A stretch of 59,289 bases of DNA, filler included, from Dimargaris cristalligena (Eukaryota): NCBI GenBank assembly GCA_003614675.1. It is 8 parts of 8 records of this genome, joined end to end, with 100 filler letters (N's around TTAATTAATTAA, not from the genome) between each part and the next. Parts side by side here need not be neighbours in the genome. Positions count along the whole stretch, not along the records: positions 22,325 to 29,654 come from ML003426.1; 7 more parts are not named here. One strand, given 5' to 3'. Both the position numbers and the translations under genes were made by a program. Below, piece by piece: positions 7,357 through 57,667 of this stretch. Position 1 is the stretch's first letter, and each line of letters opens with the position of its first letter. The notes below the pieces were generated by a model, which was not told where the DNA came from, did no database searches, and saw nothing but the letters and a program-made list of their open reading frames with translations.

Positions 7357-7456
7357 NNNNNNNNNNNNNNNNNNNNNNNNNNNNNNNNNNNNNNNNNNNN
7401 TTAATTAATTAANNNNNNNNNNNNNNNNNNNNNNNNNNNNNNNNNNNNNNNNNNNN
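7357..7456. other. Artificial contig linker (N44-TTAATTAATTAA-N44)
   Basis: Identical 100-nt spacer with stops in all six frames; recurs seven times. Confidence 0.99.
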
Positions 7457-14805: not shown

Positions 14806-14905
14806 NNNNNNNNNNNNNNNNNNNNNNNNNNNNNNNNNNNNNNNNNNNNTTAATTAATTAANNNNNNNNNNNNNNNNNNNNNNNNNNNNNNNNNNNNNNN
14901 NNNNN
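14806..14905. other. Artificial contig linker
   Basis: N44-TTAATTAATTAA-N44. Confidence 0.99.
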
Positions 14906-14956: not shown

Positions 14957-17031
14957 ATATATAGCTGGCCAAAAAATAAAGACTGCACGCCTCCAACAGA
15001 ACAGCGAAATGCAGAAGCCGATCATTTAGAGATAGTCACAGTTATAATCAAGAATGCTACGATCCCTGCCTAAGGCTAGGCTTAAGCCACCAATTACAGG
15101 CCACCACGGCCCAGTTGGGTTGAAGATGGAATAGTGACGCTAATTTACGAGGGCCTCTTAACCAAGAACGGCCTCCAGATCGACCTGGAGTCTATAAAGC
15201 TGGCGTCGACGGTCGATTAAAGCAGCGGCGGGTTATGCTTAAACAATGGTACTAGAATCCCTTGGATCCTAGAATCGAAGAATAGTAGAATAATCACGAA
15301 CTAGGGAGGGGCGGTGTGCGAATAAGGTAAATAGCCGCCGATCCCTCGCACCCTGTGTGTGGTTTATTCTTCTGGATGTCTTAGCGCGCTGTTCTGGAGG
15401 GAGATGGATAGATTGGGAGTGTTGGAGCAACTTTAAGCCACAACTCCTCACACTCCCGTGTGGTAAACTAAATACTGGGCGTAATGGTATTGAGTGCTTA
15501 ATAATGCTTTCCCACTGAGAGTATTTGGCGACTGGCTTATACCGCGACTGCCGCTGTCGCAGTGTCGTCAGGTAGTTAGTAGAACTCCTGTGTTAGTTTC
15601 CAGCTGCACGTCTTATCTGTTGGCATCCTTTCGTTACTCAGGGAATACCTTGTTGGTGGGAATTCGTCAAGTCGGGGATAGTAGCCGCCTTGGCGTAGTG
15701 GCGATTGTGGACTGCTAGGCCAATAGATAGCATGAGTATCGTTTAATAAGCAGAAAGGATGCAGCAGCTCATTTGGGCCCATCGGGAAGAGCGACGTCAT
15801 GCTTTACTCGACTGGGCTTGGCTTAGGTCAACAGTGCCCCCGCCACGTTCATTGTCATTGATCAAACGGGCCCGAAGCAACAGGGAATGGTGTGAATGTA
15901 AGGTGGAGGGACCCTTGTTCGTTGCTCTGCGATGTAGGCGCATACACCCAACACCTACACACCTCCCCTTTAGTCATGCATTTATTCACCTATCACTCTG
16001 GCTACATATAAGTATCGGCCTTCGGCCGTCGTTTCCGACCTATCTTCTACTTCTCATTTGTTTACCATCCATTCGCCGGGTCTTTCCCCTTATTTCCCCA
16101 TTTACATGTAAGTTCTCCCTACTGCCCATCCCCCTAGTATCCGCCAACTTATCCATCCCCATTTCTACCGCCCAGTATTGGGCGAGCCCTCGCGGTTATT
16201 ATAAGTAGGTAGGTGACTGGCTCTATACTACTGTTGCCCCGGTTTTCCATATCCCTTTGGCTAACCAACCCACTCTCTGAACTCGACTCCATTAATTATA
16301 CTGTTCGCCATTTATTACCTGCTGCAGAGGCTCTGCTTATCCGATTACTACTATTCGCCATCAAGTCTTATCGTGCATATCATCAGCGCATTCAACCTCC
16401 CCATTACACCAGTTCATTGGTTATTTCCCTTAAACAAAAAACATTCCCCTATCCCTGATTAGTGCTAGTAAGTCAAATCCCTTAAACTACCTTTTATTCG
16501 CACTGTACTGGCGTGGTGAGAGAGCCCCGCGTTGATGCCACCTTTTAATGATTGGGCACAGAGGTGGTGGAGGAGGGGGCGGTCGTTGGGGGAATTGAGC
16601 AACACCCACTTGTACTAGTGGTTTTCTCTATCCCCCCTACTTACTTGCCCTTGGGATAAGGAGGTGGAGGTCCAGGAAGAGTCGAGTATGTTAGGGAGGA
16701 ACTCCCAGGAATAGCCTAGTAATTAAGCTTTATCGGAGTTCCTTTTTACCATACTCTCTCTCTTTCTTTATTTCCATTTTCCCTTCAACTCCTGCCTCTA
16801 CTATACAGAGGCATACTACTCCCCTCATCTCGGTTACCCTTCGCACTGAGCTGCCTTTATCTTAGGAACCGCCCTCTATTGCCCCGTATCTCGTTTCATT
16901 GTTTGTAGGAGGTCCAGTAGTGTGCTAATTGTCCTCCACCACTGTTCCACACCACCCATTCCCATTCCCATTCACCTACCTACCCCCTCGTTTCCCACGG
17001 CCCCTCCACCCTTAATAGCATTTTGACTACC

Positions 17032-20000
17032 ATGTCCTCCGCCGAGCAAAAGCACATCCGAGAGCGCTTGGACTACTATTACCGAGCCTCCCAGGCCATT
17101 ATCCTGAGCCGCCAAAACCCCAACACTGGTCTCATTCCCGCTTCCGTGGCCGTTACCACGCATGGCGACTATCGTGACGCTTGGGTCAGGTAAATAACGC
17201 CTTGTGCTACATTCCACTATATTTGCCCAGTTTATCCTCAGTAACAATACTGCGTGGGGTATCACCGCGGTACATTGTCCAATTCCCTCATCGCTGTTCA
17301 GGTCATTTACATCCAATTTATCTGTTTTATATTCCACGCCACCAGAGATAATGTGTACTCCATCATGAGCGTTTTTGGTCTGGCTCTGGCCTACCGTCGT
17401 ATCGACGACGAAATGGGCCGGGCTTATGAGTTAGAGCACGCCACTATTAAGTTGATGCGCGGCCTACTCTTCAGCATGATGCGCCAGTCCGGTAAGGTGG
17501 AGACCTTCAAGTACACCCTGGCCCTGACCGACTCCCTCCACGCCAAGTACAACACCAACACTGGTGATACCGTGGTGGGGGACAACGAGTGGGGTCATTT
17601 GCAAGTGGACGCCACCAGTTTATTCCTACTGATGCTGGCCCAGATGACTGCCGCTGGGTTCCAGATTATCTACACCCTCGATGAAGTGGACTTTATCCAA
17701 AATCTGGTCTTCTATGTGGAGCGGGCCTACCGTACCCCCGACTACGGTATTTGGGAACGGGGTAACAAGGTCAACCATGGTGAACCCGAACTCAATTCCT
17801 CGTCCATCGGAATCGTCGTGGCTGCTCTCCAGGCCATCAGCGGGCTCAACCTGTTTGGCCCCCGTGGCGGCCCATCCTCCGTGATCCACGTTCTTCCCGA
17901 CGAAGTCACTCGCAATTCCATGATTCTGCACTCCGCCCTTCCTCGTGAATCGTTCTCTAAAGAAATCGATTCGGCCCTTTTGCCCGTAATTGGGTACCCC
18001 GCTTATGCCGTAGCCGACGAAGAAGTGATCAAAAAGACCCGTCAGGAGATTATAACCAAGCTACGTGGCAAGTACGGCTGCAAACGGTTCCTGCGTGATG
18101 GTCATCAGGCGGTCCTTGAAGACACCTCCCGGTTGTACTACGACCCGCAGGAGTTGCGGATGTTCGAAAACATTGAGTGCGAGTGGCCCCTCTTCTTCAC
18201 TTACTTTATCCTGGACGGTCTATTCCGCGGGGATACGGCCATGGTCGAAGAGTACCGTGATGCCATCCGTCCCCTATTAATCGATTCCACCACCCTGACC
18301 GATTTCCAGGATATGCCCAGCATAACCACCCCTATTATTACCAAGACTCCCCCCCGCAACTCCCCCAAGTCCCCGCGACTGACCCGGGAGACCTTCCACT
18401 TGATTCCAGAAATCTATTATGTACCGCAGGAATCGGTCGAAGCCGAAAAGGCCAACCCCCACTCGCAGGTCCGCCTTCCCAACGACAACGTACCCCTGGT
18501 CTGGGCCAACTCCCTGTACATGCTGGGCAATTTGGTCCACGAGAAACTTGTATCCACCGCCGAACTGGACCCCCTGGGTCGCCGCTTCTATGCCAGCCGG
18601 GCCGACAACCGGGATACGGTGGTCCAAATCTCCCTACTTACTGAGGACGAGTCCCTGCAGGCCAAACTGGCCACCTTCGGCCTCGAAACTCAGACCCTAG
18701 ATCAAATGGGTAGTGTGACCATCTGTCCGCCCTCAGCCCTCCAGGAGGTGTATACTACCTTGGGCATGAATGAAAAGCTGGGCCTTTCCGGTCGTCCCCC
18801 GCGTCCGGTGGGCACCTTGAGTACCTGTCGCCTCTACCGGGTCCAGGGTCGTCTCTACGCATTTGTGCCCCATTTCCTGGACAAGCAGGAGTTCTACTTG
18901 TCGTCTGACAATGATTACCTGGTCTCCGTCATCGAGAGCCAGCTTTCCTTCGTTCAGCGCCACTGGACTTTCTCAGGCCGCCCGACCTTGGTCATTTTAC
19001 TGACCCACCAAATGTTCAACCAGAGCTACCCCCAGTCGTGGATGGCCAACCGCATCCCTACCGCAGTCGATGACTCCTCCAGCGGAAAACCCGGCCAAAG
19101 TGACCGCCTATTCACCGGGAGCCAGCGCCACTTGTTGCACTTTATCATGAATCTACGCAGCGGCAGGTGCTGCAACGGCACGGTGCGCGTGCGCTTGGGT
19201 AACTTGGGCGAGATGGTCCCCACTAGCTCCATCGAGAGCCTGGATTTTCTGGTCAACAAGAACGACGTGGACTGGCTGGGTGTCCTCCGTGGCTGCCCGA
19301 CCATTTCGCGATCTGCCAGCAGTTCGCGTCTGCGTGAATTCGGCAAGTCCCCCGCCGCCACTCCCGGTCGTGGTCTGCGTCGTAATGCCTCGTTCTTTAA
19401 TACCAATTCGGGCCTCAAGACTCCGGTTGAGAAGAAGGAGGCGGATGGCTATTTCCCGCTGGCCCAAGAACTGCGTAAGCGCTTCAACTTTAAGCTTCTC
19501 GACCCCGAGTTCCCTAGCGAATTGTCGGTCTCAAGCACCGCTGCTCCCGCCACAAACTCGGCCGTGGCCTTGGCCGATGACCTGATGGCCTTGGGATTAG
19601 AACCCGCTCCCAGTATGAGTATCGACGAGGTTGACTATGCGCAGTCCTCCCCCCCGACCGCCAGCTCCCCTAGTTTAGAGAATCTCTCTTTGACCCTGGG
19701 CGATCCATCAGAAGTGCCACAGGCCATTGGCATGCTCAGCGTGGCCAATAACCTCCTGGATCAGATGGATTTGCTTCACTACCTCTACTCCTGTCATGGT
19801 CTCAAGTACTACGTGGAGGCCTTTGACGCCACGGTTCACGAACTCATCGAGGAGGTGTATATGAAGGCCCAGTACCTCAAACTCTGGGGGGTTGTGCGCC
19901 AGGCCGCCGGTGTTCTAGGTAAGGTGGTCAACAACCTCCTGACCATCTGTATCACCGACTTGGTGGTGCGTCTGAAACAGGTGTCCATTGGCCATGGCGA

Positions 20001-21588
20001 TAACGAGACTACCATTTCCTGTCCCGTGCCTCCGGATGCCATCAACGATATTTTGACCAACTGCTGTAACGAGGACGTCCGTGAGATCCCCCTGGTCCAA
20101 GAGGTCATCATCAATTTGGCTGACCTCATCCAGGCGAAGCCCAACATGTTCGATGGACTTATGAGACTGCGCACCCACAATATCATCATTGCTTTGCGCG
20201 AAGAAATCTCCCGCCTGCGCGGCTGCGATGAGGAAGAGGCCCTGGATACCCTTCTGGAAATGAGTCCTTTCGAACTCAAGATTCTTATCACCACTGTCCT
20301 GAGTGGCCCTAGCCTGAGCAAAACCAATATTCATAGTTTGGTACACGCCGAAGGTAAAGCAACGACCAGCGATACGAAGGTGCGGGGTTGGCGCAATGTG
20401 AATGTTAACGCCGTGAGCGGGGATCGGTCCGATATCTTTTCCAGTGATAAAAATGAACTGAGCATTTCGGTTCAGTCAGCTGGCTTCCAGTCAGGTAACT
20501 TTGCACGGATTGATATTAACCGAGTGAATATCCCAGTAACCAACCGGGGTATCAACCTAGTGGTGGTAGACCCAGTCGAGAGTGTTGTGGCCGAGACTAT
20601 TTCTTTTGATACCCACTTGTCCGATGCCGATTCACAAGAACTAGCTGAATTTTTGACCAACATCGAACCCCACATGGTTGTGATATTGGTGGTGAAGGAC
20701 GACTGTGCCGAACGCTTCACCCCCGAAGCCCGCCAGGCCTGTGAACTTATTGGCAGCCGGGCCGTGCACAAGGTAGGCTACCGCGACTCGTGGTGCCTAG
20801 TGGGGTACAAGGGGGCCCGCCCCGACCATGTGGCTGAGCTACACCGTGTCGCTACCCAGGGTCCCACCGATATGCTCCACATTCGCTACCCTTTGGCTGA
20901 GCTGCGCCAATTGGCCCAGCAAACGACTACGGCGACGCTACCAAATCCCCTCACTAAGAGCGCTGCTGGGGGCCGCTGGCTGCGGAGACGCAAGAATGAT
21001 GGTGCGCTCAACCGGGTGCCATCTGATTTTTATCCTCGCGTGTGGAAAGTCCTTGCCAAGTGCTACGGTATCATGGTGCAGAATGAGTTCCTGCCCCGCG
21101 ACCCTCTGGTGTACGAAAAGACCCCAGAGGAACCCAATTTCGCATACCGTGTGGAATCCTTCCTGGGCGTGACCCAGGACCCTGCTGAGCGCCAAATCGC
21201 AGTTGAATGTCTTATGACCCTGTCGTTCCTCCAGCATACCCACCCTGACGCGGGCGCAGGCCTGCGCCCTCAAGACCAGGGCGAGGAGGTCATCAATTTA
21301 ACCCAGATCTTCAAAGATGCCTTGGCGGCATTTTGGCAGCAGTGGTGCCAGAAACACGCTAATGGAGCTGACCAATCGGCTTCGTTGGCCGAGCTTCCCT
21401 ATGACGACCGGCTCGCTCGTAGCCTCTTTTACGATTTGCCCACTACGGCCGAATTCGGCACTGTGTACTACCTAGCTCGTAGCGCACTGACCCATATCGA
21501 TGCTGGCCAAGCTGAGTCATACGCTCGCGAATGTGTGCTGCACTACGGTCAGTGGGAGGGCGAGAGCTTTCCCATCTGCTTTTCTTAA
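17032..21588 (+). CDS. Phosphorylase kinase regulatory subunit alpha/beta-like protein (GH15-like domain) with an ILEI/PANDER-like domain; exons 17032-17189 and 17346-21588
   Basis: ILSRQNPNTGLIPAS, AWVRDNVYSI (across the intron), WGHLQVDATSLFLLMLAQMT, AYRTPDYGIWERG, LPRES.SKEID, GKYGCKRFLRDGHQ, FENIECEWPLF, WLRRRK.DGALNRVP..FY, P..RQ..VE.L are PHKA/PHKB family motifs. Confidence 0.92.
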
Positions 21589-22224: not shown

Positions 22225-22324
22225 NNNNNNNNNNNNNNNNNNNNNNNNNNNNNNNNNNNNNNNNNNNNTTAATTAATTAANNNNNNNNNNNNNNNNNNNN
22301 NNNNNNNNNNNNNNNNNNNNNNNN
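22225..22324. other. Artificial contig linker
   Basis: N44-TTAATTAATTAA-N44. Confidence 0.99.
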
Positions 22325-22590
22325 ACCACCCCCCTCCACCAGCCCTCCACTCAACACCTCCAAATCGGGGTCGTTTAAGCCATTTCTGGATCATCCTTCA
22401 ATTCGAAGGCGCGTCAGTCAAGGGTGAGAAGTGCAAGGTGCGTGTTAGTGTAGCCTGAAGGAGGTGGACCTTGCATACCGTTACCTGAAGTGCAGTTCTT
22501 CGGAGTGCCCTCCCCACAGTAGTCCCAGCTTGCTGGGATGCGAAGCACCCGAAGGGCTACGAGGAGAGGTCACGTAGATGAACGGAACGT

Positions 22591-22650
22591 AAGGTATAAG
22601 GTTTGCAACTTGCAGGCCCACCGGTCAGGCGAAACGTGCGCACCTGGAAC
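22591..22650 (+). repeat. Left arm of inverted repeat flanking the array
   Basis: AAGGTATAAGGTTTGCAACTTGCAGG (22591-22616) is the exact reverse complement of 29628-29653; imperfect similarity continues about 35 bp inward. Confidence 0.9.
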
Positions 22651-22654
22651 GTCG

Positions 22655-25600
22655 TAAGCGAAGCGACCTCGTGCATAGGAGACCAGCAGCCAGGATCGGT
22701 AGTAAGTGAAGAGGGGGTGGATAGTGTAGGACTGAAGCCCTTGGGGGCCCCTTTAGGGGAGGCGTAAGGACGGAGCGTGCCCCCTCGTAACGACCTCGTG
22801 CAAGTGATCAACATGGAGTAGGGCAGTCATGAATGAACATGAGACACCCACGAGGTGGCTCCCTGCAACGATCATCAGTAAGCAAAGCGACATACTGGCT
22901 GAGACAGCCACAGCTGGCTCAATGCAGCGATAATTATTAGGAATTGGCAGGGTTCACGTAATAGTTACTCAGCAACATGAGACGGCCATAGTCGGCTCCT
23001 TCTAGCGGTGGTACTAAGCGAAGCGACCTCGTGCAGCTTGAATTTAAATAATCAGCAGGGTTGACGTTATCGTCATGAACATTACCAAAGGAGCCAGCTG
23101 TGGCTGTCTCAAGCAGCTATAATTATTAGATTACTTACCCGAGACACCCACGAGGTGGCTCCTAGTAACGGCGGTATTAAGCGAAGCGACACCTTGCAAC
23201 TCGAGTCAATAGTCATCATTATCAACGTCACCCTCATCACTCAACGGTGCGACCATGGTTTAAATGACTCCAAGGGAGCCAGCTGTGGCTGTCTCAACAA
23301 TTAGTAGTGAGCTTAGCGACTCCGTTATTCAACCTGCAGCATCAGTTTAAATGTGAGACCTCATCACTATTGTCATTCTAACCATCACCAGTAAGCGAAG
23401 CAACCCGATTCATCCAACCGTTCAACATTGAGTTATAATGTTCAACAATGGGGCGGTGATGGTAAGCGAAGCGACCTGTGCATCATGAATTAGTAATACA
23501 CCTGATACACCCACGAGGTGTCTCATCTGTGAGACCTTCAGGATTAGCCAGGAGCCAGCTGTGGCTGTCTTAATAAATTCATGTTCAACCGTGCAGCCTT
23601 CATTTAAATGAAAGATGGCCACCGTCATCATAAGGGGTTAGCCTAGGGAGCCAGCTGTGGCTGTCTCAACACCGTAAGTTCCTATTCAACCTGCAGCGAT
23701 GATCTGTAATAAACTACCTGAGACGGCCACAGGCGGCTCAACAGTATAGAACTCGGTAAGCGAAGCGACACGTGCAACATGAGCTTATAGGAGGGAATAA
23801 TATACGAATGAACGATGCCCTGAAGCTTCAGAGTTGAGAACGAGAAAATGACGTCAAGCGGAGCGACACTACATCAAGAGTTACCCAGCTGCAACCCTGA
23901 CTATCAATGATTCACCTGTAACGCATCACCGTCACCATCAACAGGTAGCAAGAGGAGCCAGCGGGGTTCACATCATGGGGTCACCGTGCAGCAAGGATTG
24001 CTAATAAGCTACCCGAGACGGCCACAGGCGGCTCAATGTAGCGGGGGTAGTTCATAAGCATAAAACGATGCTGCGACGGCCACAGGCGGCGCCCTCTCGT
24101 TAATTCAGTAAGCGAAGCGACACCTTGCTCATGCAACCTGCAGCCGTCATCATCAATAAGCGACAGGTCCCTCCTGAGTCATTTCAGTACAACCATCAAC
24201 ATCATGTAGCAATAGGGAGCCAGCTGTGGCTGTCTCAACCGTGCAGCGATGATTAGTAAGTGACCTGAGACGGCCACAGTCGGCTCATTCAATCGGTGAT
24301 ATTAAGCGGAGCGACTCGGGTATCATCACGTTCCACCTGCAGCCAGGATTATGAATCAACATAATCGTCATCATCGTCAACATGATCACCACCCTCAACA
24401 TCAATCGTAACCCTCACCATCAACACCTTCAGGTTCAACCTTCAAAGATGATTAATCAACCTGAGACACTCACGAGGTGACTCCATTCGATCGTACTCAA
24501 TAAGCGAAGCGACTCGTTCACCAAGAGTTACCAACCGTGCAGCATTGATTGTGAATCACCTGAGACGGACATATCTAACGGATTCAGTAAGCGAAGCGAC
24601 CTCGTGCAGATCCACCAATGGAATCATCATAAACGTCATCCACCTCGACAAGTTAGCCAGCGGGGTTGACATAATGAGGGTCACCCATGCAGCAAGGAAC
24701 TATAACTTAGTACGATTAGACGAGCAGCCAGTAGCTCCGCAATGAGACCGTCATCAACAGGGCTTATTCAACCGTTATCTAAATGAGTGACTCCCTAGTG
24801 GTGATATTCTAAACCTAAGGGTCCCAAGAGGTCATCGAACTCAGTAAGCGAAGCGACATCGTGCAACATGGGTCAGTTATCCTCCTCATCATCAACAATA
24901 AGCGAAGCGACCTCGTGCACATTCAACCTGCAGCTTTAATTTAAATATGAGACCTGAAACGAATATGAATAGAAAGAAGAGCCAGCTGTGGCTGTCTCAA
25001 CACCAGTAAGTTCAACCGTGCAGCGGTGATCTTTAATGCTACCCGAGACACCCACGAGGTGGCTCCTTCCATTCATCATAATAAGCGAAGCGACATCTTG
25101 TTCATCAACCTGCAGTACTAATCTAACTGAGTAACCTGAGACGGCTATAATCATCTTTATTATAACCGTCACCCACTTCGACAGGGGAGCCGCCTAGGCC
25201 GTCTCAACGTTCAGCCTTGATTAGTAAAGGTACCTGATAAGCGAAGCGACCTTTATTCACGATCGACCTACAACCCTGGTCTATAATCCACCTGAGACAC
25301 CCACGAGGTGGCTCCCTTCAGCACTAGTTGATAAGCGAAGCGACCCCTTGCTCATTCCACCTTCAACCATAATCTTTAACATGTTCCACCCGAGACGGCC
25401 ACAGACGGCTCCCTAGATTCCTGATGTTAAGCGAAGCCCCATCGTGTTCATCAACCTGCAGCCCTGATTAATAAGCGGAGCGACATCGTGCAACGAAGGG
25501 TGTCACCATCAACATCGCTAAACATTAGCACCATCATGAGTAATCGACTTAGCTTAATTCAACGGTGCAGCCATGATATTTAATTAAACCTGAGACGGCC

Positions 25601-28600
25601 ACAGTCGGCTCAATGGTCCACTGATTAGTAAGCGAAGCGACCCGGAGTACAATTCACTGCAGCACTAGTTTATAACCAACCCTCATCAACATCATAATCA
25701 CCAAGGGAGCCAGCTGTGGCTGTCTTAGCGAGTTCAGTGTTGATAGGCGACACAATTCATTCAACAGTGCAGCGGTGATCTAAATGGACAACAAGTCCAG
25801 CAGTGATTCATAAAGCAAGAGGAGCCAACGGAGTCGCCATCATCAAGCGAAGCGACCTCGTACGTCATGGGTCAGCAGGTGAAGTCCAGCGAAGGAGTGA
25901 TCGATCCCCTGAGGCTTCAGGGGTGAGAGAACGAAAGAGCGTTACTAAGCGAAGCGACACCATGATCAACCGGTCAGTCAACATTGTCATCAGTAGGCGA
26001 AGCGCCTTGTGAGTCACCCAACGGTGCAGCATCAATTAGTAATCAACCTGAGACAGCCACAGCTGGCTCAATCTATTAGTGCTACTAAGCGAAGCGACTC
26101 TGATTCAGTCAACGATGCAATCATGATCTAAATGAGCAAGAGGAGCCAGCTGTGGCTGTCTCGAGCAGCAAGGGCTACTATAACTCAGCTACAAAGATTA
26201 AGCAGCAGGGATGGTTATTAATTAGTATGAGACGGCCACAGGCGGCTCCCTTGATTGAGTCTTGGTAAGCGAAGCGACCCTGAGCTCATGATACCGAGCA
26301 GCACTGATTTATAGACTCGACCTGAGACACCCACGAGGTGGCTCCCTTCAGCGATGGTGGTGAGCGACTTCATATTCAATCGTGCAGCATTAATTTAAAT
26401 CAACTACCTGAGACGGCCACAGGCGGCTCCTTCGATGGTAACTGGTAAGCGAAGCGACCCAGAGTTCAATTCAACCGTGCAGCACTAATCTAAATGATCA
26501 CCGAAGGGAGCCAGCTGTGGCTGTCTCAACAGGTTCAGCTACGGTTATGAATGAATCACCTTTATCTCACCATGAACCTGCTTACCATAGCAGCTGAGAA
26601 TGTCAATCATAACCCATCACCACATGACCATAGTCATGACCGTCACAAAAGAGCCAGCTGTGGCTGTCTCACGATGCAGCATTAATTGGTAAGGATTCAA
26701 CAAGGATTATGGAGGTCAACATGACAACCCCCAGAACCGACGTCAACATTACCCAGGGAGCCAGCTGTGACTGTCTCAACACCAATGACCGTTCAACAAT
26801 AATCTACTCGAGACGGCCACAGGCGGCTCATAACGCTCATCATCAACGTAAGCGAAGCGACCTGTGCAAGACTTATTAACCCGAGCAACCGTGATCTATA
26901 GTGTTACCTGAGACACCCACAAGGTGGCTCCCTTGATTAGATATGATAAGCGAAGCGACCCTATTCAAATGAGCGTCATCGGTATCAGAACCATCAGCCT
27001 TGATCAACGAGTACAGCGGTGATGTTGAGCGAAGCGACAGTTCAGATGAACCGGCGGAATCGTTATCCTAACCGTCATGACCAACATCCTCATCACCGTC
27101 ATTAGTAAGCGAAGCGTCATCTAGGTCAAAACCAATGCAGCTGTAATTGTTAATAAACCTGAGACGGCCACAGGCGGCTCCACTCATCAGGGTTAGTAAG
27201 CGAAGCGACTCGTGCACCATCAACCTGGAGAATAGTGTATGAGTGAACGATGCCCTGAGACCTCAGGGTTGAGTGAAAGAACGTCATTGTCAATATCATC
27301 ACCCTCACCGTCGTATTAACTCACCCTCAACATTGTCATCAAGAGGTATCAACCGAAAGGAGCCAGCTGTGGCTGTCTCAAGCAGTCCAACATTGATCAT
27401 CAAGGACATACCGATCAACAGTCAAGTCAACCCCTCAGCCATAACCGTCATCAAGGACTTCAATATAATCCACTCGACCGTCAACAATACAACCAGGATC
27501 AAATCCAAGGATAGTAATCAGATCCATCAGCCTGAACGTCAACGCCGACGTTAACAAGAGCAGCACAAACCTGTAGACCACCAGCGTAAACGACGGGAAG
27601 AGTAACCAGATCGACGTCACCAGATACTCCAGCAACGTCATAACCGATAGGAAGGACATCGCCAAGGGAGCCAGCTGTGGCTGTCTCAACAGGTTCAATT
27701 GGTGAGCGAAGCGACATCATGAACATCATCGTCATCACCACCACCGTTATCCTCAACATCAACGTCACCATCATCACCATCAACCCGAGACGGCCATAGT
27801 CGGCTCTATTCATTAGTGATGTTAAGCGAAGCGACCCGTGAGTCAGTCCAGCGGTGCAACCCAATCAAAGATTATTAATGATAAGCGAAGCGCCTCTTAC
27901 ATCCTGAGTCAGTCGTCACCATCATGATCAACAAGGAGCCAGCTGTGGCTGTCTCACGATCAACCTAAATTGTAAGGTCGTTAAAAAGGAGCCGCCTGTG
28001 GCCGTCTCAACATTCAACAGAAGCACCATTCCGCAGGATAATTATATGATAAAGAGCTCCGCAGGAGTCATCTATGATAACTTACGTGATTCATCAGCCT
28101 GCAACATCGATCGAAAGGTCTACCTGAGACAGCCACAGGTGGCTCCATCCAGTTCAATTGGTAAGCGAAGCGACATCGTATATCAAGGGTCAGTTACCGT
28201 GCAACCATGATCTAAAGGAGACCCTTACAGCAGGATGATAAGCGAAGCGACATCGATTCACATTCAACGGTGCAGCTCTAGTCTAAGTTCCACACCATAA
28301 CTCATCCTAACCGTCCTCATCAGTAAGCGAAGCGACATCATATTCATCAGTTCAACAACGGTCTAAATGTACTACCTGAGATACACACGAGATGATACTG
28401 GTAAGCAAAGCGACTCGTGCAGCGTTAGCCTCTAGGAGGATGAGTGGACGAACGAGCGATGCCCTGAGACTTCGGGGTTGAGGGAGTGAGGTAACGTCTA
28501 CAAGCGAAGTGACCTTGAGTATCTAGGGTTAACAATGCAGCAGGGGTCTATAGGTGTGTCGCAAACGGAGTGCGCAGGAATAGTGGTAAGGAGTGGAGGA

Positions 28601-29570
28601 GTGTCGTTAAGCGAAGCGACACCTTATTCATTATACCTGCAGCCGCTATCTGTAAGATCAACCGTATAGCGAGCATTCATAGTGCTACCCGAGACACCCA
28701 CGAGGTGGCTCATACAGCGGGGATTAATAGTCAATTCGCACAGGGAGCCAGCTGTGGCTGTCTCTGCAACAACAACTGGTAGCTACTCGAGACGGCCACA
28801 GGCGGCTCAACCCAGAGGAGGATACCAGACTAGCAAGGTCAACACGATCATTAATAAGCGAAGCTACTTAACAACGGGAGCCAGCTGTGGCTTCTCAACA
28901 GTGCAGCATGAATTATTAGTTAGCCACCTGAGACGGCCACAGGCAGCTCAATATACTAATTAATTGGTATCAGCATTAAATTCGTCATCAACAGAAGAGC
29001 CGGCTGTGGCCGTCTCAGGTTGGTTAATTAAGTCCTGGCTGATTGAGCTAACCTCAGCTACCTCCCAGCAGAGGTACTTTATAAGCGAAGCGACCCACCG
29101 AAGAGTCATTCAACCGAGCAACCCTGATTTAAAATAACTCGAGACGGCCATAGGCGGCTCAACCTGAATGAACTTCATAACCGACCTCTTGTTAACTGAG
29201 ACAGCCACAGCTGGCTCCATTTAATAGACTTGATAAGCGAAGCGACCGGGTGAAGGATCACGTGATGTGGCTAAAGAACTAGTAGGGGCTAGATGCAGCA
29301 GCAATCATAAAAGATGCGCAGGGCTAGAGATCACGATCAATTTAAGTCTACTTGAGACAGCCATAGCTGGCTCAATCGTTAATTACTCAAGGGTTAATCA
29401 GGTCCCGAGACGGCCACAGCCGGCTCCATAGCCACGATCAATTCTAGGATTCAGCAGGGATTAAGATTCAGTGATGAAGCAGAGTGCTCATCAGGTGAGC
29501 CGACTATGGCCGTCTCAAGCTATCAACGGTTAATATAGGGAGGCTACTCGAGACAGCCACAGCTGGCTCC
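22655..29570 (+). repeat. Modular hairpin-box array: box A GAGAC(G/A)(G/C)CCA..GGCTC (both orientations), box B TAAGCGAAGCGAC (+ strand only), box C CAACC(G)TGCAGC, with variable linkers; non-coding
   Basis: By eye roughly 40 box B, 50+ box A and 25+ box C copies. No credible ORF. Confidence 0.95.
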
Positions 29571-29593
29571 CTATACAAGGTCGTTCCGGTGTC

Positions 29594-29653
29594 TGTTCCG
29601 GGGTGCACGCTTCGCCCAACCGGTCCCCCTGCAAGTTGCAAACCTTATACCTT
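29594..29653 (-). repeat. Right arm of inverted repeat flanking the array, running into the contig end
   Basis: CCTGCAAGTTGCAAACCTTATACCTT at 29628-29653. Confidence 0.9.
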
Positions 29654-29654
29654 C

Positions 29655-29754
29655 NNNNNNNNNNNNNNNNNNNNNNNNNNNNNNNNNNNNNNNNNNNNTT
29701 AATTAATTAANNNNNNNNNNNNNNNNNNNNNNNNNNNNNNNNNNNNNNNNNNNN
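29655..29754. other. Artificial contig linker
   Basis: N44-TTAATTAATTAA-N44. Confidence 0.99.
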
Positions 29755-37068: not shown

Positions 37069-37168
37069 NNNNNNNNNNNNNNNNNNNNNNNNNNNNNNNN
37101 NNNNNNNNNNNNTTAATTAATTAANNNNNNNNNNNNNNNNNNNNNNNNNNNNNNNNNNNNNNNNNNNN
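37069..37168. other. Artificial contig linker
   Basis: N44-TTAATTAATTAA-N44. Confidence 0.99.
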
Positions 37169-44480: not shown

Positions 44481-44580
44481 NNNNNNNNNNNNNNNNNNNN
44501 NNNNNNNNNNNNNNNNNNNNNNNNTTAATTAATTAANNNNNNNNNNNNNNNNNNNNNNNNNNNNNNNNNNNNNNNNNNNN
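44481..44580. other. Artificial contig linker
   Basis: N44-TTAATTAATTAA-N44. Confidence 0.99.
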
Positions 44581-49688: not shown

Positions 49689-50390
49689 ATGTCTCAGTCC
49701 TTTGAAGATCGTTTCAACACCACGGAGACTCTCCTAAAGGAGATGATTGCAGAACGGCAAGGATCAGCGTTGGTCGATCACCAAGGCCAGAATCTCCGGG
49801 ATAAGCAGCTCCCTGATGCGCTACGTAACGTCCCCAGTACCTTCCGTCCTGCCGTCTATGCTCGTGAACGCCAGCCCATCAGTCAGTGGGCCGACTATCA
49901 CCTCCCGTTCTCGCACTTACCCCCGGAGTCCCGAATTGTCCGAACCCATAAGGATACATACGCAAAGGGAATGGCCCTCGAATCCTGTGAGGAGTACCTA
50001 GCGGGCCAAACCCTCCTGTCCTTAATTGTCACTGGATTAGCCTATGCCGAGTCAGTTGATCCTGGGTTTTCCACGGATCCCCATGTGAATTATCTAGTGG
50101 GGATATTGGCTGGTGCTATTGATGGAACTCTGTTATCTCGGTTAACTCTTAATCGGATAAAGGTAACAGAAGGTGTTAAAGCCGCCAATGCCATTTGTAT
50201 GATGGACGACAGTGACCTTGCTGCCAATAGTTCCCTCTGTTTACAAGGACTGATCACCCAGTTTATGTCTAAGAAACAAGATCAGGAAATGGCGGTGGCA
50301 GCTCAGGTTGCTATACGATCACAGAATGTTAATACTGAAAGTGCTAAGGTAAACCCTGCAAAGGGGAAGCCTAGCACTCGTCAGGATTAG
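49689..50390 (+). CDS. ORF1 (gag-like) of DIRS-type retrotransposon
   Basis: 233-aa ORF directly upstream of the DIRS-like RT; assigned by position only. Confidence 0.6.
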   Translation: MSQSFEDRFNTTETLLKEMIAERQGSALVDHQGQNLRDKQLPDALRNVPSTFRPAVYARERQPISQWADYHLPFSHLPPESRIVRTHKDTYAKGMALESCEEYLAGQTLLSLIVTGLAYAESVDPGFSTDPHVNYLVGILAGAIDGTLLSRLTLNRIKVTEGVKAANAICMMDDSDLAANSSLCLQGLITQFMSKKQDQEMAVAAQVAIRSQNVNTESAKVNPAKGKPSTRQD

Positions 50391-50442
50391 CTCCTCCAGC
50401 CCGTCCAAGGAGGGGCCTCTGTATTTACAGGTCAGGTCAGCA

Positions 50443-51700
50443 GTGGACATTTGGGCTTCCTTAAAAACCTCCCCCCATGTTCTCGATTGGATCAAACATG
50501 GGGTTGCTATTCCGTGGAAAGAGGGCCCCCCACCCCCATTCAACATTCCCGAGTCGCCCTTAGCCAGCCCAGAAGAAGTAGGGTTCATGCAGTCCGAGAT
50601 CAAGCAGATGCTGTCAGCTGGGGCAATCCGGGAAATTCCAAAGGGTACCCATATCTCCCCCTCTTTCCTTATACCCCGAAAGGGAGGTGGGTACTATCTC
50701 ATCACCGACTTGAGATACATGAATACATTTTGTCGGTCACGAACTATGCATTACGAGACTTGGGACACCGTCAGGAACTTTATTCGGCCGGAACAGCGTG
50801 TGATATCCTTCAATTTGAAGGATGGTTACATGGCTATCGGAATCCGCCCGAATTTCCAGTGGTACTTCCAAATGTGGTTGCTTGGGAGGGTTTACCAATT
50901 CAATACCCTCCCCTTTGGGTGGACCTTATCACCCTTCTTCTTCTGCAAAATGATGAAGACCTTAACTTATACCCTCAGATCATGGGGGTCAAGTTGCTTA
51001 CCCTATTTGGACGACTATTTAGTCCTCTGCTCCGGTTCGCACATCAGAATGGCAGCAACAGCCAGTCGGGTACAACAGCTCATCTGGACCCTCGGACTTC
51101 GCCCCCATCCCATCAAGTACCAGTGGGAACCCTCTGCTGTGATCAATCATCTTGGTCTGACAGTAGATATCCCCAATCTGCAGTTCCATCTAACCAGCGA
51201 ATTTCATCAAAAGCTAGCTTCCCAGGTCCACCTCTTATTGAGGAAGGCTGCTCAAAGGAAACGAGTTGTCAAGGCCCGCACCCTGGCCTCTCTGACAGGA
51301 CTCATGCAATCAGCACATCTGGTATTCCCTGCAGTTCTTATGTATCTCTGATCAGTTTATACTTGTCTCACTGCAAAAACAAGTTGGGATGCCCCAGTCA
51401 AACTATCAAATGCCGCCTATCGGGACCTAAAACGTTTATTCCAGATCCTCCTGGAGGTCCAGTTAAGCCACCCAATTCCAGCCCCAGTCCGGACCCATCT
51501 CTTAACTACTGATGCCAGTGGCCAAGGCTTCGGGTGGACCTACGATTCCGACCTTGGCCATGGGATGTGGACTCAGGCCAAAGCCCAGCTCCATATTACC
51601 GCTTTGGAACTAATGGCAGTGGAAAAGGCCTTATGCATGAACTTGCAGAGGATAAAGGGTCATTGAATTCGGTTACAAATGGATGCTGTGGCAAGGTGGA
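50443..51700 (+). pseudogene. DIRS1-type reverse transcriptase-RNase H, inactivated and 3'-truncated
   Basis: VLDWIKHG, SPSFLIPRKGG, LPFGWTLSPFFF, YLDD, HLGLTVD. Reading through TGA 51349 gives TTDASGQGFG and HITALELMAV (DIRS RNase H). A second TGA lies at 51664, and the first catalytic Asp reads N (FNLKDGY). Confidence 0.88.
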
Positions 51701-51888: not shown

Positions 51889-51988
51889 NNNNNNNNNNNN
51901 NNNNNNNNNNNNNNNNNNNNNNNNNNNNNNNNTTAATTAATTAANNNNNNNNNNNNNNNNNNNNNNNNNNNNNNNNNNNNNNNNNNNN
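51889..51988. other. Artificial contig linker
   Basis: N44-TTAATTAATTAA-N44. Confidence 0.99.
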
Positions 51989-54326: not shown

Positions 54327-55247
54327 TTATTCGTCAAAGAGGGTGCCTTTGGGAAGGTCCCACAGATTATGGTTATCGACCTGTCGCGCTTTGGTGCCAA
54401 TAGTGGTGATTTTTTGGTACTGGGCGTCAGTGAGCTTAAAGTCGCTTTTGAAGTTGTTTTCGATACGGGAGGGGGTCACCGATTTCGGGATCACCGAGGT
54501 CCCACGCTGAAGGCCCCAGGCGAGTATCACCTGGGCAGGGGTGTGGCCGGTTTCCTCAGCGACTTCCTTAACCGCGGGGTCCTCCAGAACACTGGGTTTA
54601 ACAGTTGATCCAAGCGGACAATACGCCGTGACGTGAATGCCTTTGGCCGTGCAGACATCAATTAGCTTCCGATTCGGGTTGTAGGGGTGGACCTCTACTT
54701 GGTTCACCGCAGGGGGGATCTCGGCCACTTCCAGCAGGGTGGTGAGTCGGGGGATATTGAAGTTGGACACCCCGATGTTGCGGACTTTGCCGTCTCGAAC
54801 GAGCTTTTCCATGGCCCTCCACGTGTCCACAATGGAAACGTCGTCCAGCGCGGGCTTACCGTTGGGAAGCTGGGCCGCCGTTTCTAACTTGCCCCCGTCC
54901 TTCTTGAAGGCCACGGGCCAGTGAATCAGATACAAGTCGAGGTAATCGAGTCCCAGCTTGCGCAGAGTTTCGTCGCAGGCCGGACCAACATCCTCGGGGT
55001 TGTGTTCGGTGTTCCACAGTTTGGAGGTGACCCAAATCTGATCACGGGGCACCTCGCTTTCGCGAAGGGCCTCGCCCACCTCTTCCTGGTTTCGGTAGAT
55101 CGCCGCACAGTCGATGTGCCGGTAGCCGATGCGCAAGGCCTCTTTAACAGCCACCTTCACCTTCTCCGGCTCTGAGCGCCACGTTCCAAATCCAACAGTA
55201 GGAATTTTAGCCCCGGAGTTTAGCGTAAATGTGCTATGGGTGGACAT
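54327..55247 (-). CDS. Aldo-keto reductase (Gcy1/Ypr1/AKR1A-like), copy 1
   Basis: GFGTW, GYRHIDCA.IY, SKLWN, LDLYLIHWP, IGVSNF, VNQVEVHPY, VIPKS. Confidence 0.96.
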   Translation of the reverse strand: MSTHSTFTLNSGAKIPTVGFGTWRSEPEKVKVAVKEALRIGYRHIDCAAIYRNQEEVGEALRESEVPRDQIWVTSKLWNTEHNPEDVGPACDETLRKLGLDYLDLYLIHWPVAFKKDGGKLETAAQLPNGKPALDDVSIVDTWRAMEKLVRDGKVRNIGVSNFNIPRLTTLLEVAEIPPAVNQVEVHPYNPNRKLIDVCTAKGIHVTAYCPLGSTVKPSVLEDPAVKEVAEETGHTPAQVILAWGLQRGTSVIPKSVTPSRIENNFKSDFKLTDAQYQKITTIGTKARQVDNHNLWDLPKGTLFDE

Positions 55248-56746: not shown

Positions 56747-57667
56747 TTATTCGTCAAACAGAGTGCCCTCGGGAAGGCCCCACATATCATGAGGCTCGCA
56801 CACACGTACTTTGGTGCCAATGTTGGTAATTTTCTGGTACTGAGCGTCAGTGAGCTTAAAGTCGCTTTTGAAGTTGCTTTCAATGCGGGAGGGGGTCACC
56901 GATTTCGGGATTACCGAGGTCCCATGTTGAAGGCCCCAGGCGAGTATCACCTGGGCGGGGGTATGCCCAGTTTCCTCGGCGACTTCCTTGACCGCGGGGT
57001 CCTCCATGACACTGGGCTTACCGGTTGATCCAATCGGACAATAAGCCGTGACTTCAATACCCTTGGACTTACAGAAATCAATCAGCTTCTGGTTCTGGTT
57101 GTAGGGATGGACCTCTACTTGGTTCACCGCAGGGGGAATCTCGGCCGCCGCCAGCAGAGTGGTGAGCTGGGCGATGTTGAAATTCGACACACCAATGTTA
57201 CGGGTTTTGCCGTCGCGAACAAGCTTTTCCATGGCCTTCCAGGTATCCACGTAAGAAACGTCGTTCAACACGGGCTTGCCGTTGGCATGCTTGACCGACG
57301 TATCGAACTTGTCCCCGTCCTTCTTAAATGCCACGGGCCAGTGCATCAGATACAAGTCGAGGTAATCGATCCCTAATTTGCGCAAAGTGTCGTCGCAGGC
57401 CGGACCGACGTCCTTGGGGTTGTGTTCGGTGTTCCACAGTTTGGAGGTGATCCAAATCTGATCACGGGGCACATCACTTTCACGAAGGGCCTTGCCCACC
57501 TCTTCCTGGTTTTCGTAGACTGATGCACAGTCGATGTGTCGGTAGCCAATGCGCAAGGCCTCCTTCACGGCGTTCTTCACCTTCTCCGGCTCCGAGCGCC
57601 ACGTTCCAAATCCCAGGGCGGGGATTTTAGCACCAGAATTGAGCGTAAAAGTACTATGAGTAGACAT
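56747..57667 (-). CDS. Aldo-keto reductase, copy 2
   Basis: Same length (306 aa) and motifs as copy 1. Confidence 0.96.
   Translation of the reverse strand: MSTHSTFTLNSGAKIPALGFGTWRSEPEKVKNAVKEALRIGYRHIDCASVYENQEEVGKALRESDVPRDQIWITSKLWNTEHNPKDVGPACDDTLRKLGIDYLDLYLMHWPVAFKKDGDKFDTSVKHANGKPVLNDVSYVDTWKAMEKLVRDGKTRNIGVSNFNIAQLTTLLAAAEIPPAVNQVEVHPYNQNQKLIDFCKSKGIEVTAYCPIGSTGKPSVMEDPAVKEVAEETGHTPAQVILAWGLQHGTSVIPKSVTPSRIESNFKSDFKLTDAQYQKITNIGTKVRVCEPHDMWGLPEGTLFDE

Follow-up and report, generated by a model that had tools for sequence, protein, structure and literature searches.

One contig of Dimargaris cristalligena, contig 4, carries an old array without coding capacity, in which a composite unit of ~90-105 nt is repeated. 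The array represents a new complex repeat family, specific to its lineage, in which two motifs are unusually well conserved: a small hairpin, box A, and a 13-mer, box B, found 16 or 17 nt downstream of it. We read this A-16/17-B pair as a putative two-part recognition module under purifying selection, a proposal whose function we only infer and which we consider to have an even chance of being right. The window, that is, the whole stretch of DNA analysed (59,289 nt), consists of eight pieces of 7,301-7,356 nt each, joined by N44-TTAATTAATTAA-N44; since adjacent pieces are not physically linked, the context across these joints is meaningless.

Box A has the form GAGAC-NGCC-ACAG-GNNGGCTC and occurs in 49 copies in contig 4, 31 on the + strand and 18 inverted. 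Its 20-nt pattern gives 40 matches in the window versus 0.25 expected, nine copies of a 21-nt variant raise the total to 49, and the other seven contigs (51 kb) contain none. Box B, TAAGCGAAGCGAC, is present in 43 copies at 22655-29246, all on the + strand: 28 are exact, 11 have one mismatch and four have two. When up to two mismatches are allowed, the whole window yields 44 matches versus 0.54 expected, the sole match outside contig 4 being at position 603, with two mismatches. A box B lies 3′ of box A in 20 of the 31 + copies, at a distance of 16 nt (13 cases), 17 nt (six) or 19 nt (one); the remaining 11 have no B within 40 nt, 23 of the 43 B boxes lack an intact A upstream, and no B is found at 16-17 nt from any of the 18 inverted A copies, taken in their own orientation. 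The first-pass annotation had described a 16-17-nt spacer in about 18 units. The spacing holds, the full count is 20, and the 12 spacers quoted, together with the 19-nt exception, are all present at the places given for them; the eight-contig make-up of the window, the 18 inverted A and the 23 B boxes without intact A are features beyond that description.

The same motif order recurs when contig 4 is cut at every B. Linker x (17-26 nt) separates box B from the C box (AACCGTGCAGC); linker d (18-23 nt), whose last four letters are ACCT, then leads to hairpin A, and the 16-17-nt linker connects this hairpin to the following B. With nhmmer, a profile of 12 units recovers 20 near-full copies on the + strand and only fragments on the − strand, spanning d and hairpin A with its flanks; the partial inverted copies carry only the hairpin and its flanks. 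B-only units are also present, some of them being visible deletion derivatives of A plus spacer (e.g., 24558, 25230), and A/C-rich tracts with a three-base rhythm stand on the + strand upstream of inverted A copies. Self-matches detected by blastn extend over 50-240 nt at 70-85% identity. Unit divergence and indels explain why Tandem Repeats Finder detects no repeat in the array region. As in a satellite, head-to-tail units of one family are found (20 near-full + units, 43 co-oriented B); a regular period and homogenised monomers are not, B-to-B distances ranging from 44 to 506 nt and identity being limited to the values above. The array grew by head-to-tail duplication and was later broken by A/C-rich insertions, deletions and partial inverted copies.

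Against this background of decay, the two boxes stand out. In the unit alignment, the consensus frequency per column is 0.9-1.0 for B and the two A arms versus 0.3-0.7 for the spacer and linkers: the boxes are ~97% identical while the linkers are near mutational saturation. At stem pair 6 of hairpin A, 30 copies have A-T and the other 19 have G-C, so that 49/49 are paired; pair 7 is G-C in 22, C-G in nine, G-T in five, G-G in 12 and G-A in one; pair 2 has one compensated C-G; and pair 4 is an A.G mismatch in 47/49. RNAalifold, applied to 12 units, predicts hairpin A and nothing else. Of the inverted A copies, 16/18 are the same 20-mer or one base off. The A-to-B distance is the least variable of the unit, with a standard deviation of 0.76 versus 1.54 for linker d and 2.84 for linker x (outliers trimmed for the latter two); the Brown-Forsythe test gives p=0.008 and 5e-5 for these two comparisons, values that are only indicative because the units are related by descent. 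Near-saturated linkers, a nearly invariant B, a compensated A stem and a held A-B distance together lead us to read the pair as a selected two-part module, and the bipartite site with a spacing constraint put forward in the first-pass annotation is supported on the same grounds.

A partner of this module would recognise a small hairpin (or quasi-palindrome) and, ~three helical turns away centre to centre, a 13-mer that is single-stranded or asymmetric; the array would offer many such sites in a row. In the version that we prefer, the + strand would be transcribed and the array would serve as a platform for multivalent binding, carried by a long non-coding RNA or else by the DNA itself. The strict co-orientation of B, and an A>T and C>G skew that is independent of the orientation of A, point to a role at the RNA level; the equal conservation of A both ways and the bracketing inverted repeat (Table 1) point to a role at the DNA level or as a transposon end. 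Several observations weigh against the module as we propose it. The equal conservation of inverted A is less expected of a specific RNA hairpin than of a transposon end or of a site recognised in double-stranded DNA. The compensatory changes fall in about three subfamilies, so that independent events are few, and templated correction in the palindrome during replication may keep the stem without selection. With 23/43 B boxes devoid of intact A and 11/31 + copies of A devoid of B, the pair is not obligatory, and some units are plain deletion derivatives such as those at 24558 and 25230. Finally, the evidence base is one contig plus fragments from sequencing runs.

A more specific proposal, which we regard as unlikely, is that, in this early-diverging fungus, A-16/17-B is recognised by a strand-specific protein, either one that binds nucleic acids or an enzyme that acts on them. 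In a first version, a hairpin-reading recombinase or nuclease would cut or join at a set distance from the foot of the hairpin, and the array would be built by units inserting beside their own ends, as a eukaryotic counterpart of the bacterial systems of repetitive extragenic palindromes and bacterial interspersed mosaic elements (REP/BIME) or of integron cassettes. In a second version, an RNA-binding protein would be titrated by a multivalent long non-coding RNA with ~20-40 two-part sites. If either version were true, the boxes would be functional and the array would be more than decaying repeat DNA.

The contig shows no sign of coding capacity. Its longest open reading frame (ORF) does not exceed 121 aa, a six-frame reading shows no coding frame, the tRNA scan finds none in contig 4, and the ORF scan detects no transposase, effector, processing or cas-like gene. 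Its base content is skewed (A 29.4% vs T 21.4%), with a G+C of 49% similar to that of the other pieces. No match at gathering score is obtained with the families of Rfam 15 (small nucleolar RNA (snoRNA), ribozymes, small nuclear RNA, 5S, miRNA). When contig 4 alone is searched up to an E-value of 10, the best match is mir-1756, at 25.7 bits vs a gathering score of 100, and the other sub-threshold matches are weak miRNA-like hairpins and one Hammerhead_II at E=7. A few resemblances were considered and set aside: a C/D snoRNA, since the TGAT..CTGA strings lack, by eye, the conserved GA of box C; similarities of 7-9 nt to 5S, U1 and U2, which have no Rfam support; and a Zn-cluster or E-box site in box A, whose central bases differ between subtypes.

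The sequence is that of real DNA and not an artefact. It is found near word-for-word in six sequencing runs from three studies under three organism labels, and contigs of four runs (three studies) match long pieces of it with 0 differences, e.g., 27669-29652 in run X2. Unique pieces have a low, even and single-copy-like depth of 4-13 in runs X1 and X2; for X3 and X6, the depth values vary extremely and were left out of the evidence. Together with the absence of rRNA and tRNA genes and the G+C content, this low and even depth makes a mitochondrial or ribosomal DNA origin unlikely. Many further contigs in four runs contain the same boxes with different linkers. A variant joint, 25015>25081, with nine letters replaced, occurs in all four runs; its depth (3.7 in X1, 5.9 in X2) is similar to that of unique contig 4 pieces, which indicates that related units exist at other loci.

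Table 1. Positions of the joints, of contig 4 and of the array features, counted along the window.
Feature	Position	Strand	Remarks
Joints N44-TTAATTAATTAA-N44	7357-7456, 14806-14905, 22225-22324, 29655-29754, 37069-37168, 44481-44580, 51889-51988		
Contig 4	22325-29654	.	separate 7330-nt assembly contig carrying the whole feature; N linkers on both sides
Core array	22655-29246	+	43 B and 20 near-full units (C box - d - hairpin A - spacer - B - x)
A(21 nt)-17-B	22841-22891	+	
A-16-B	22979-23027	+	
A(21 nt)-16-B	23141-23190	+	
A-17-B	23720-23769	+	
A-16-B	24073-24121	+	A with compensated stem pair 2 (GCGAC...GGCGC)
A-16-B	24267-24315	+	
A(21 nt)-17-B	24463-24513	+	
A(21 nt)-16-B	25045-25094	+	
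A(21 nt)-17-B	25294-25344	+	
A-16-B	25392-25440	+	B with 2 mismatches
A-17-B	25592-25641	+	
A-16-B	26050-26098	+	
A-17-B	26229-26278	+	
A-16-B	26410-26458	+	
A-19-B	26810-26861	+	sole length exception
A(21 nt)-16-B	26910-26959	+	
A-16-B	27161-27209	+	spacer with two 14/16 matches elsewhere in the window
A-16-B	27787-27835	+	
A-16-B	28126-28174	+	
A-16-B	29198-29246	+	final module of the array
18 inverted box A, 20 nt each	within 23091-29516	−	starts 23091, 23276, 23552, 23648, 24217, 24979, 25707, 26143, 26508, 26651, 26758, 27360, 27668, 27936, 27989, 28745, 28997, 29497
11 B-less box A	within 22901-29569	+	starts 22901, 23504, 24015, 26324, 28691, 28789, 28930, 29141, 29354, 29407, 29550
Left arm of bracketing inverted repeat	22591-22650	+	51/60 positions (85%) equal to the reverse complement of 29595-29653
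Right arm of bracketing inverted repeat	29595-29653	−	
Module D, second small hairpin, 4 copies	23810-23838, 25899-25927, 27245-27273, 28454-28482	+	

The right arm of the bracketing repeat reaches the contig end, and the inverted repeat may therefore be longer. The reverse complement of the inner right arm contains GCGAAGCGTGCAC, which resembles box B plus the GTGCA that follows it; box B may thus derive from the bracketing repeat. Module D folds as CCCTGA..TCAGRG (CCCTGAG..CTCAGGG), with stem changes between copies, and stands in a purine-rich context, usually between two B boxes; a related stretch is found near 22700-22790. Module D and the start of box A share CCTGAGAC.

Five other explanations of the array were weighed: a transposon, introns, insertions, guides and an artefact. 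None of them displays, on present data, the features that define it. The one that survives best, and which we still consider rather unlikely, is a derivation from transposons. Box A would then be the terminal inverted repeat of a ~70-220-nt element resembling a miniature inverted-repeat transposable element (MITE) or a foldback element, with the layout A+ - spacer - B - C - A−; contig 4 would consist of such elements nested together, or else be the internally repetitive part of one larger element with the 60-nt inverted repeat at its ends, and binding by a transposase would keep the boxes. Terminal inverted repeats are indeed found: 12 adjacent A+...A− pairs enclose 68-219 nt, most of them with a B inside, and such pairs fold as long stems (z=-4.5; a weak mir-1756-like hairpin lies at 26047-26165). 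The bracketing inverted repeat of at least 60 nt (85%) and the related units at other loci agree with this explanation, as does a retroelement-like ORF in contig 7, a weak lead, as a trace of mobile DNA in the assembly. However, inspection of the flanks of the A+...A− pairs revealed no target-site duplication, and the two ends of a pair usually belong to different A subtypes, the + copies being mostly GGCC/GGCG or the 21-nt form and the inverted ones AGCC/AGCT. The interiors are 70-85% identical but the ends near-perfect, unlike a recently active MITE; the other 51 kb of gene-bearing contigs contain no A and a single B with two mismatches, and contig 4 encodes no transposase.

Improbable, in our view, is an array of intron origin, made of decayed introner-like introns or of tandem intron plus micro-exon pairs in a transcribed gene. 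Here, (G)TAAGCG or GTAAGT would be the 5′ splice site, TGCAG the 3′ splice site, and the hairpin a stable structure of the introner type; fungal introner-like elements have a stable secondary structure. Splice-like strings occur on the + strand only: GTAAGT lies in the linker before A at 24250 and past inverted A at 23677 and 25009, and GTGCAGC/CTGCAGC is found both in the C box and 3′ of B; the single orientation of all B boxes and the three-base rhythm of the A/C-rich tracts would also be accounted for. Yet the best-kept parts, A and B, are not splice signals, whereas conservation is poor in the splice-like parts: only 20/43 copies of TAAGCG have a G in front, and GTAAGT is left in few units. 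The distance from B to TGCAG is only ~35-40 nt, no frame harbors an ORF, a translated piece has no predicted-protein match, the genes of the other seven contigs contain no copy of the unit, and a literature search found nothing linking Dimargaris with introners.

The fixed junction 16-17 nt from the hairpin foot could alternatively reflect hairpin-directed insertion, by which a mobile unit running from B through x, C, d and A to the spacer would have been attached 3′ of hairpin A, always at the same distance. The joining would be performed by a single-strand-specific nuclease or recombinase, as in IS200/IS605, REP/RAYT (REP-associated tyrosine transposase), Helitron or integron cassettes, and the targeting of its own ends would give a head-to-tail array. 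Several traits can be understood in this way: the conserved hairpin mismatch (47/49) and the compensatory stem changes; the homology of the spacer with the sequence after B-less hairpins, as if B interrupted a longer tract; and the 11/31 + hairpins that would be "unoccupied". We hold this mechanism to be highly improbable, since B lies at 16-17 nt from 0/18 inverted versus 20/31 direct hairpins, for which common descent of the whole unit is simpler. In Helitrons, the 3′ hairpin stands 10-12 nt before a CTRR terminus and the next unit starts with TC; here the spacer ends with N-T-R-N, the next motif starts with TAAG and the distance is 16-17 nt. Furthermore, no gene for an HUH enzyme or a recombinase is at hand, and prokaryotic or viral relatives are lacking (four single prokaryotic matches, 0 viral).

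The 16-17-nt spacers themselves inspired a further proposal, a scaffold-guide-scaffold cassette advanced in the first-pass annotation, in which A and B would be scaffolds around acquired guides targeting other nucleic acids. Their length is kept and their sequence variable, as this proposal would have it, and the spacer at 27181-27196 (CACTCATCAGGGTTAG) has 14/16 matches at 50375-50390 (+) and 16449-16464 (−). These two matches are probably due to chance: all 20 spacers give a total of two at this level, versus a mean of 0.24 and a maximum of two in 50 shuffled sets. When the 20 spacers are compared with one another, the mean pairwise alignment score is 0.400. Shuffled spacers reach 0.302±0.009, with a maximum of 0.326 over 200 shuffles, and 16-mers drawn at random from contig 4 reach 0.318±0.009; the neighbouring linkers score 0.471 (before A) and 0.415 (after B). 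The spacer consensus is approximately C-W-T-Y-N-A-T-Y-N-G-W-G-N-T-R-N, and, among the 13 spacers that are 16 nt long, 10-12 have C at position 1, T at position 3, A at position 6 and T at position 14. A spacer-like sequence, e.g., CCTTGGTGATTATGAT, is also found 3′ of inverted A, in its own orientation, followed by a G/T-rich tract and no B. The longest exact spacer matches in the other 51 kb have a mean length of 9.5 versus 9.43 when shuffled, the observed mean being reached by 71/200 shuffles and the observed maximum by 79/200 in what is a low-power search; no spacer is repeated within contig 4, and neither an adjacent effector gene nor an Rfam scaffold is found.

The guide proposal fails because the spacers share a consensus, have diverged like the linkers beside them and match no more targets in the other 51 kb than expected by chance, and we give it hardly any credence. 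Exactly these three findings had been named in the first-pass annotation as grounds for abandoning it, and a short-match search against shuffled controls, as suggested there, yields no excess of targets in the other 51 kb. Its caveat, that the spacers may have diverged in place, proves to be the correct reading, given the shared consensus and the spacer-like sequence after B-less inverted A. The 16-17-nt spacer is the part of the unit with the weakest conservation, and it diverged in place by point mutation rather than being acquired. As for an assembly or amplification artefact or contaminant DNA, suggested by the short contig with inverted ends, the fragmented assembly and two runs with thousands of related contigs at very uneven depth, its chances are next to nil in view of the long pieces identical across studies and organism labels, the low and even depth in X1 and X2, and the absence of matches in plasmid, prokaryote or viral collections.

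Relatives of the array were sought outside the genome. The exact 20-mer of box A has only four single matches, and no arrays, in 185,579 prokaryotic genomes, and 0 matches in viral contigs; megablast of contig 4 against plasmids gave no match. A metagenome scan for GGCTC-N16/17-box B returned 33 loci, all single and at chance level, with box A in 0/33. The box B 13-mer was also seen at 82-nt spacing in two long, unrelated metagenome contigs (L012 2940-3034, L033 2940-3116) devoid of box A, where it probably belongs to a tandem repeat that has no relation to the array and may be coding. A 97-aa translated segment in which translations of the boxes abound retrieved one candidate from 5.8 billion proteins (53-170 aa range searched), and none scored. 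Literature searches found nothing resembling the array or its motifs, and nothing of the kind is described in passages of PMC9866270 and PMC6784888.

The other pieces of the window carry ordinary fungal genes, encoding a Bem1-like SH3-SH3-PX-PB1 protein, a non-ribosomal peptide synthetase module, a phosphorylase-kinase-like protein and two aldo/keto reductases. The latter are 306 aa long and encoded by tandem intron-less genes at 54327-55247 (−) and 56747-57667 (−). The first is 99% identical to a protein assigned by its source to Dimargaris cristalligena, and the second-best database match, P0002 (83% identity, same 31-kb contig), may be a tandem paralogue. An intron-less ORF of 1444 aa at 17254-21588 (+) associates a glycosyl hydrolase 15/phosphorylase-kinase-like region with an ILEI (FAM3-like) domain (residues 1098-1188), an unusual domain combination. 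At 49689-51512 (+), adjacent ORFs in shifted frames have no Pfam match; one of them, 353 aa long, exhibits reverse-transcriptase-like features (ESM Atlas score 0.91, 119 shared features), a weak lead, and these ORFs are possibly a decayed retroelement.

Two near-invariant motifs at a fixed distance, in dozens of units that have drifted, are the signature of selection on many parallel binding sites. They occur here in a lineage-specific complex repeat of a poorly studied mycoparasitic fungus and, to our knowledge, almost no regulatory, centromeric or mobile-DNA biology is known in Zoopagomycota. If a partner were found, the module would constitute a new cis-element in this group.

The array can be compared with several known systems. 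As in CRISPR arrays, conserved elements flank short segments of constant length; here, however, the spacers are mutually homologous, the two boxes are different, no cas-like genes are present and the organism is a eukaryote. MITEs and foldback elements (Drosophila FB, Tetris) likewise have inverted ends, of 20 nt here, around ~70-220 nt, a bracketing repeat, internal tandem repetition and several loci, but the array differs from them by its lack of target-site duplications, its mixed end subtypes, its old interiors with perfect ends and the absence of dispersed copies in 51 kb. With bacterial REP/BIME it shares short imperfect palindromes with a conserved mismatch, in both orientations, together with fixed-length linkers and conserved motifs, clustered in non-coding DNA; in contrast, it belongs to a eukaryote, covers 7 kb with ~50 hairpins, has no bacterial context and no known RAYT, and the neighbouring contigs carry fungal genes. 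The Xist A-repeat consists of conserved short hairpin cores split by variable linkers. Like such repeat modules of long non-coding RNAs, the array lacks an ORF, repeats a short conserved structured core many times in the same orientation with linkers that vary, and is presumed to be a multivalent binding platform; unlike the Xist A-repeat, it also has inverted hairpins and a much larger copy number. Primate alpha satellite is a complex satellite whose monomers harbor the 17-bp CENP-B box. The array resembles such box-bearing complex satellites in its head-to-tail monomers (~100-170 bp, differing by 15-40%), with a near-invariant box in many of them, in being non-coding and in occupying more than one locus. 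Unlike alpha satellite, it is interrupted by insertions and has a strong strand skew, and its boxes are two in number, a fixed distance apart, one being a hairpin that shows compensatory changes and is found in both orientations.

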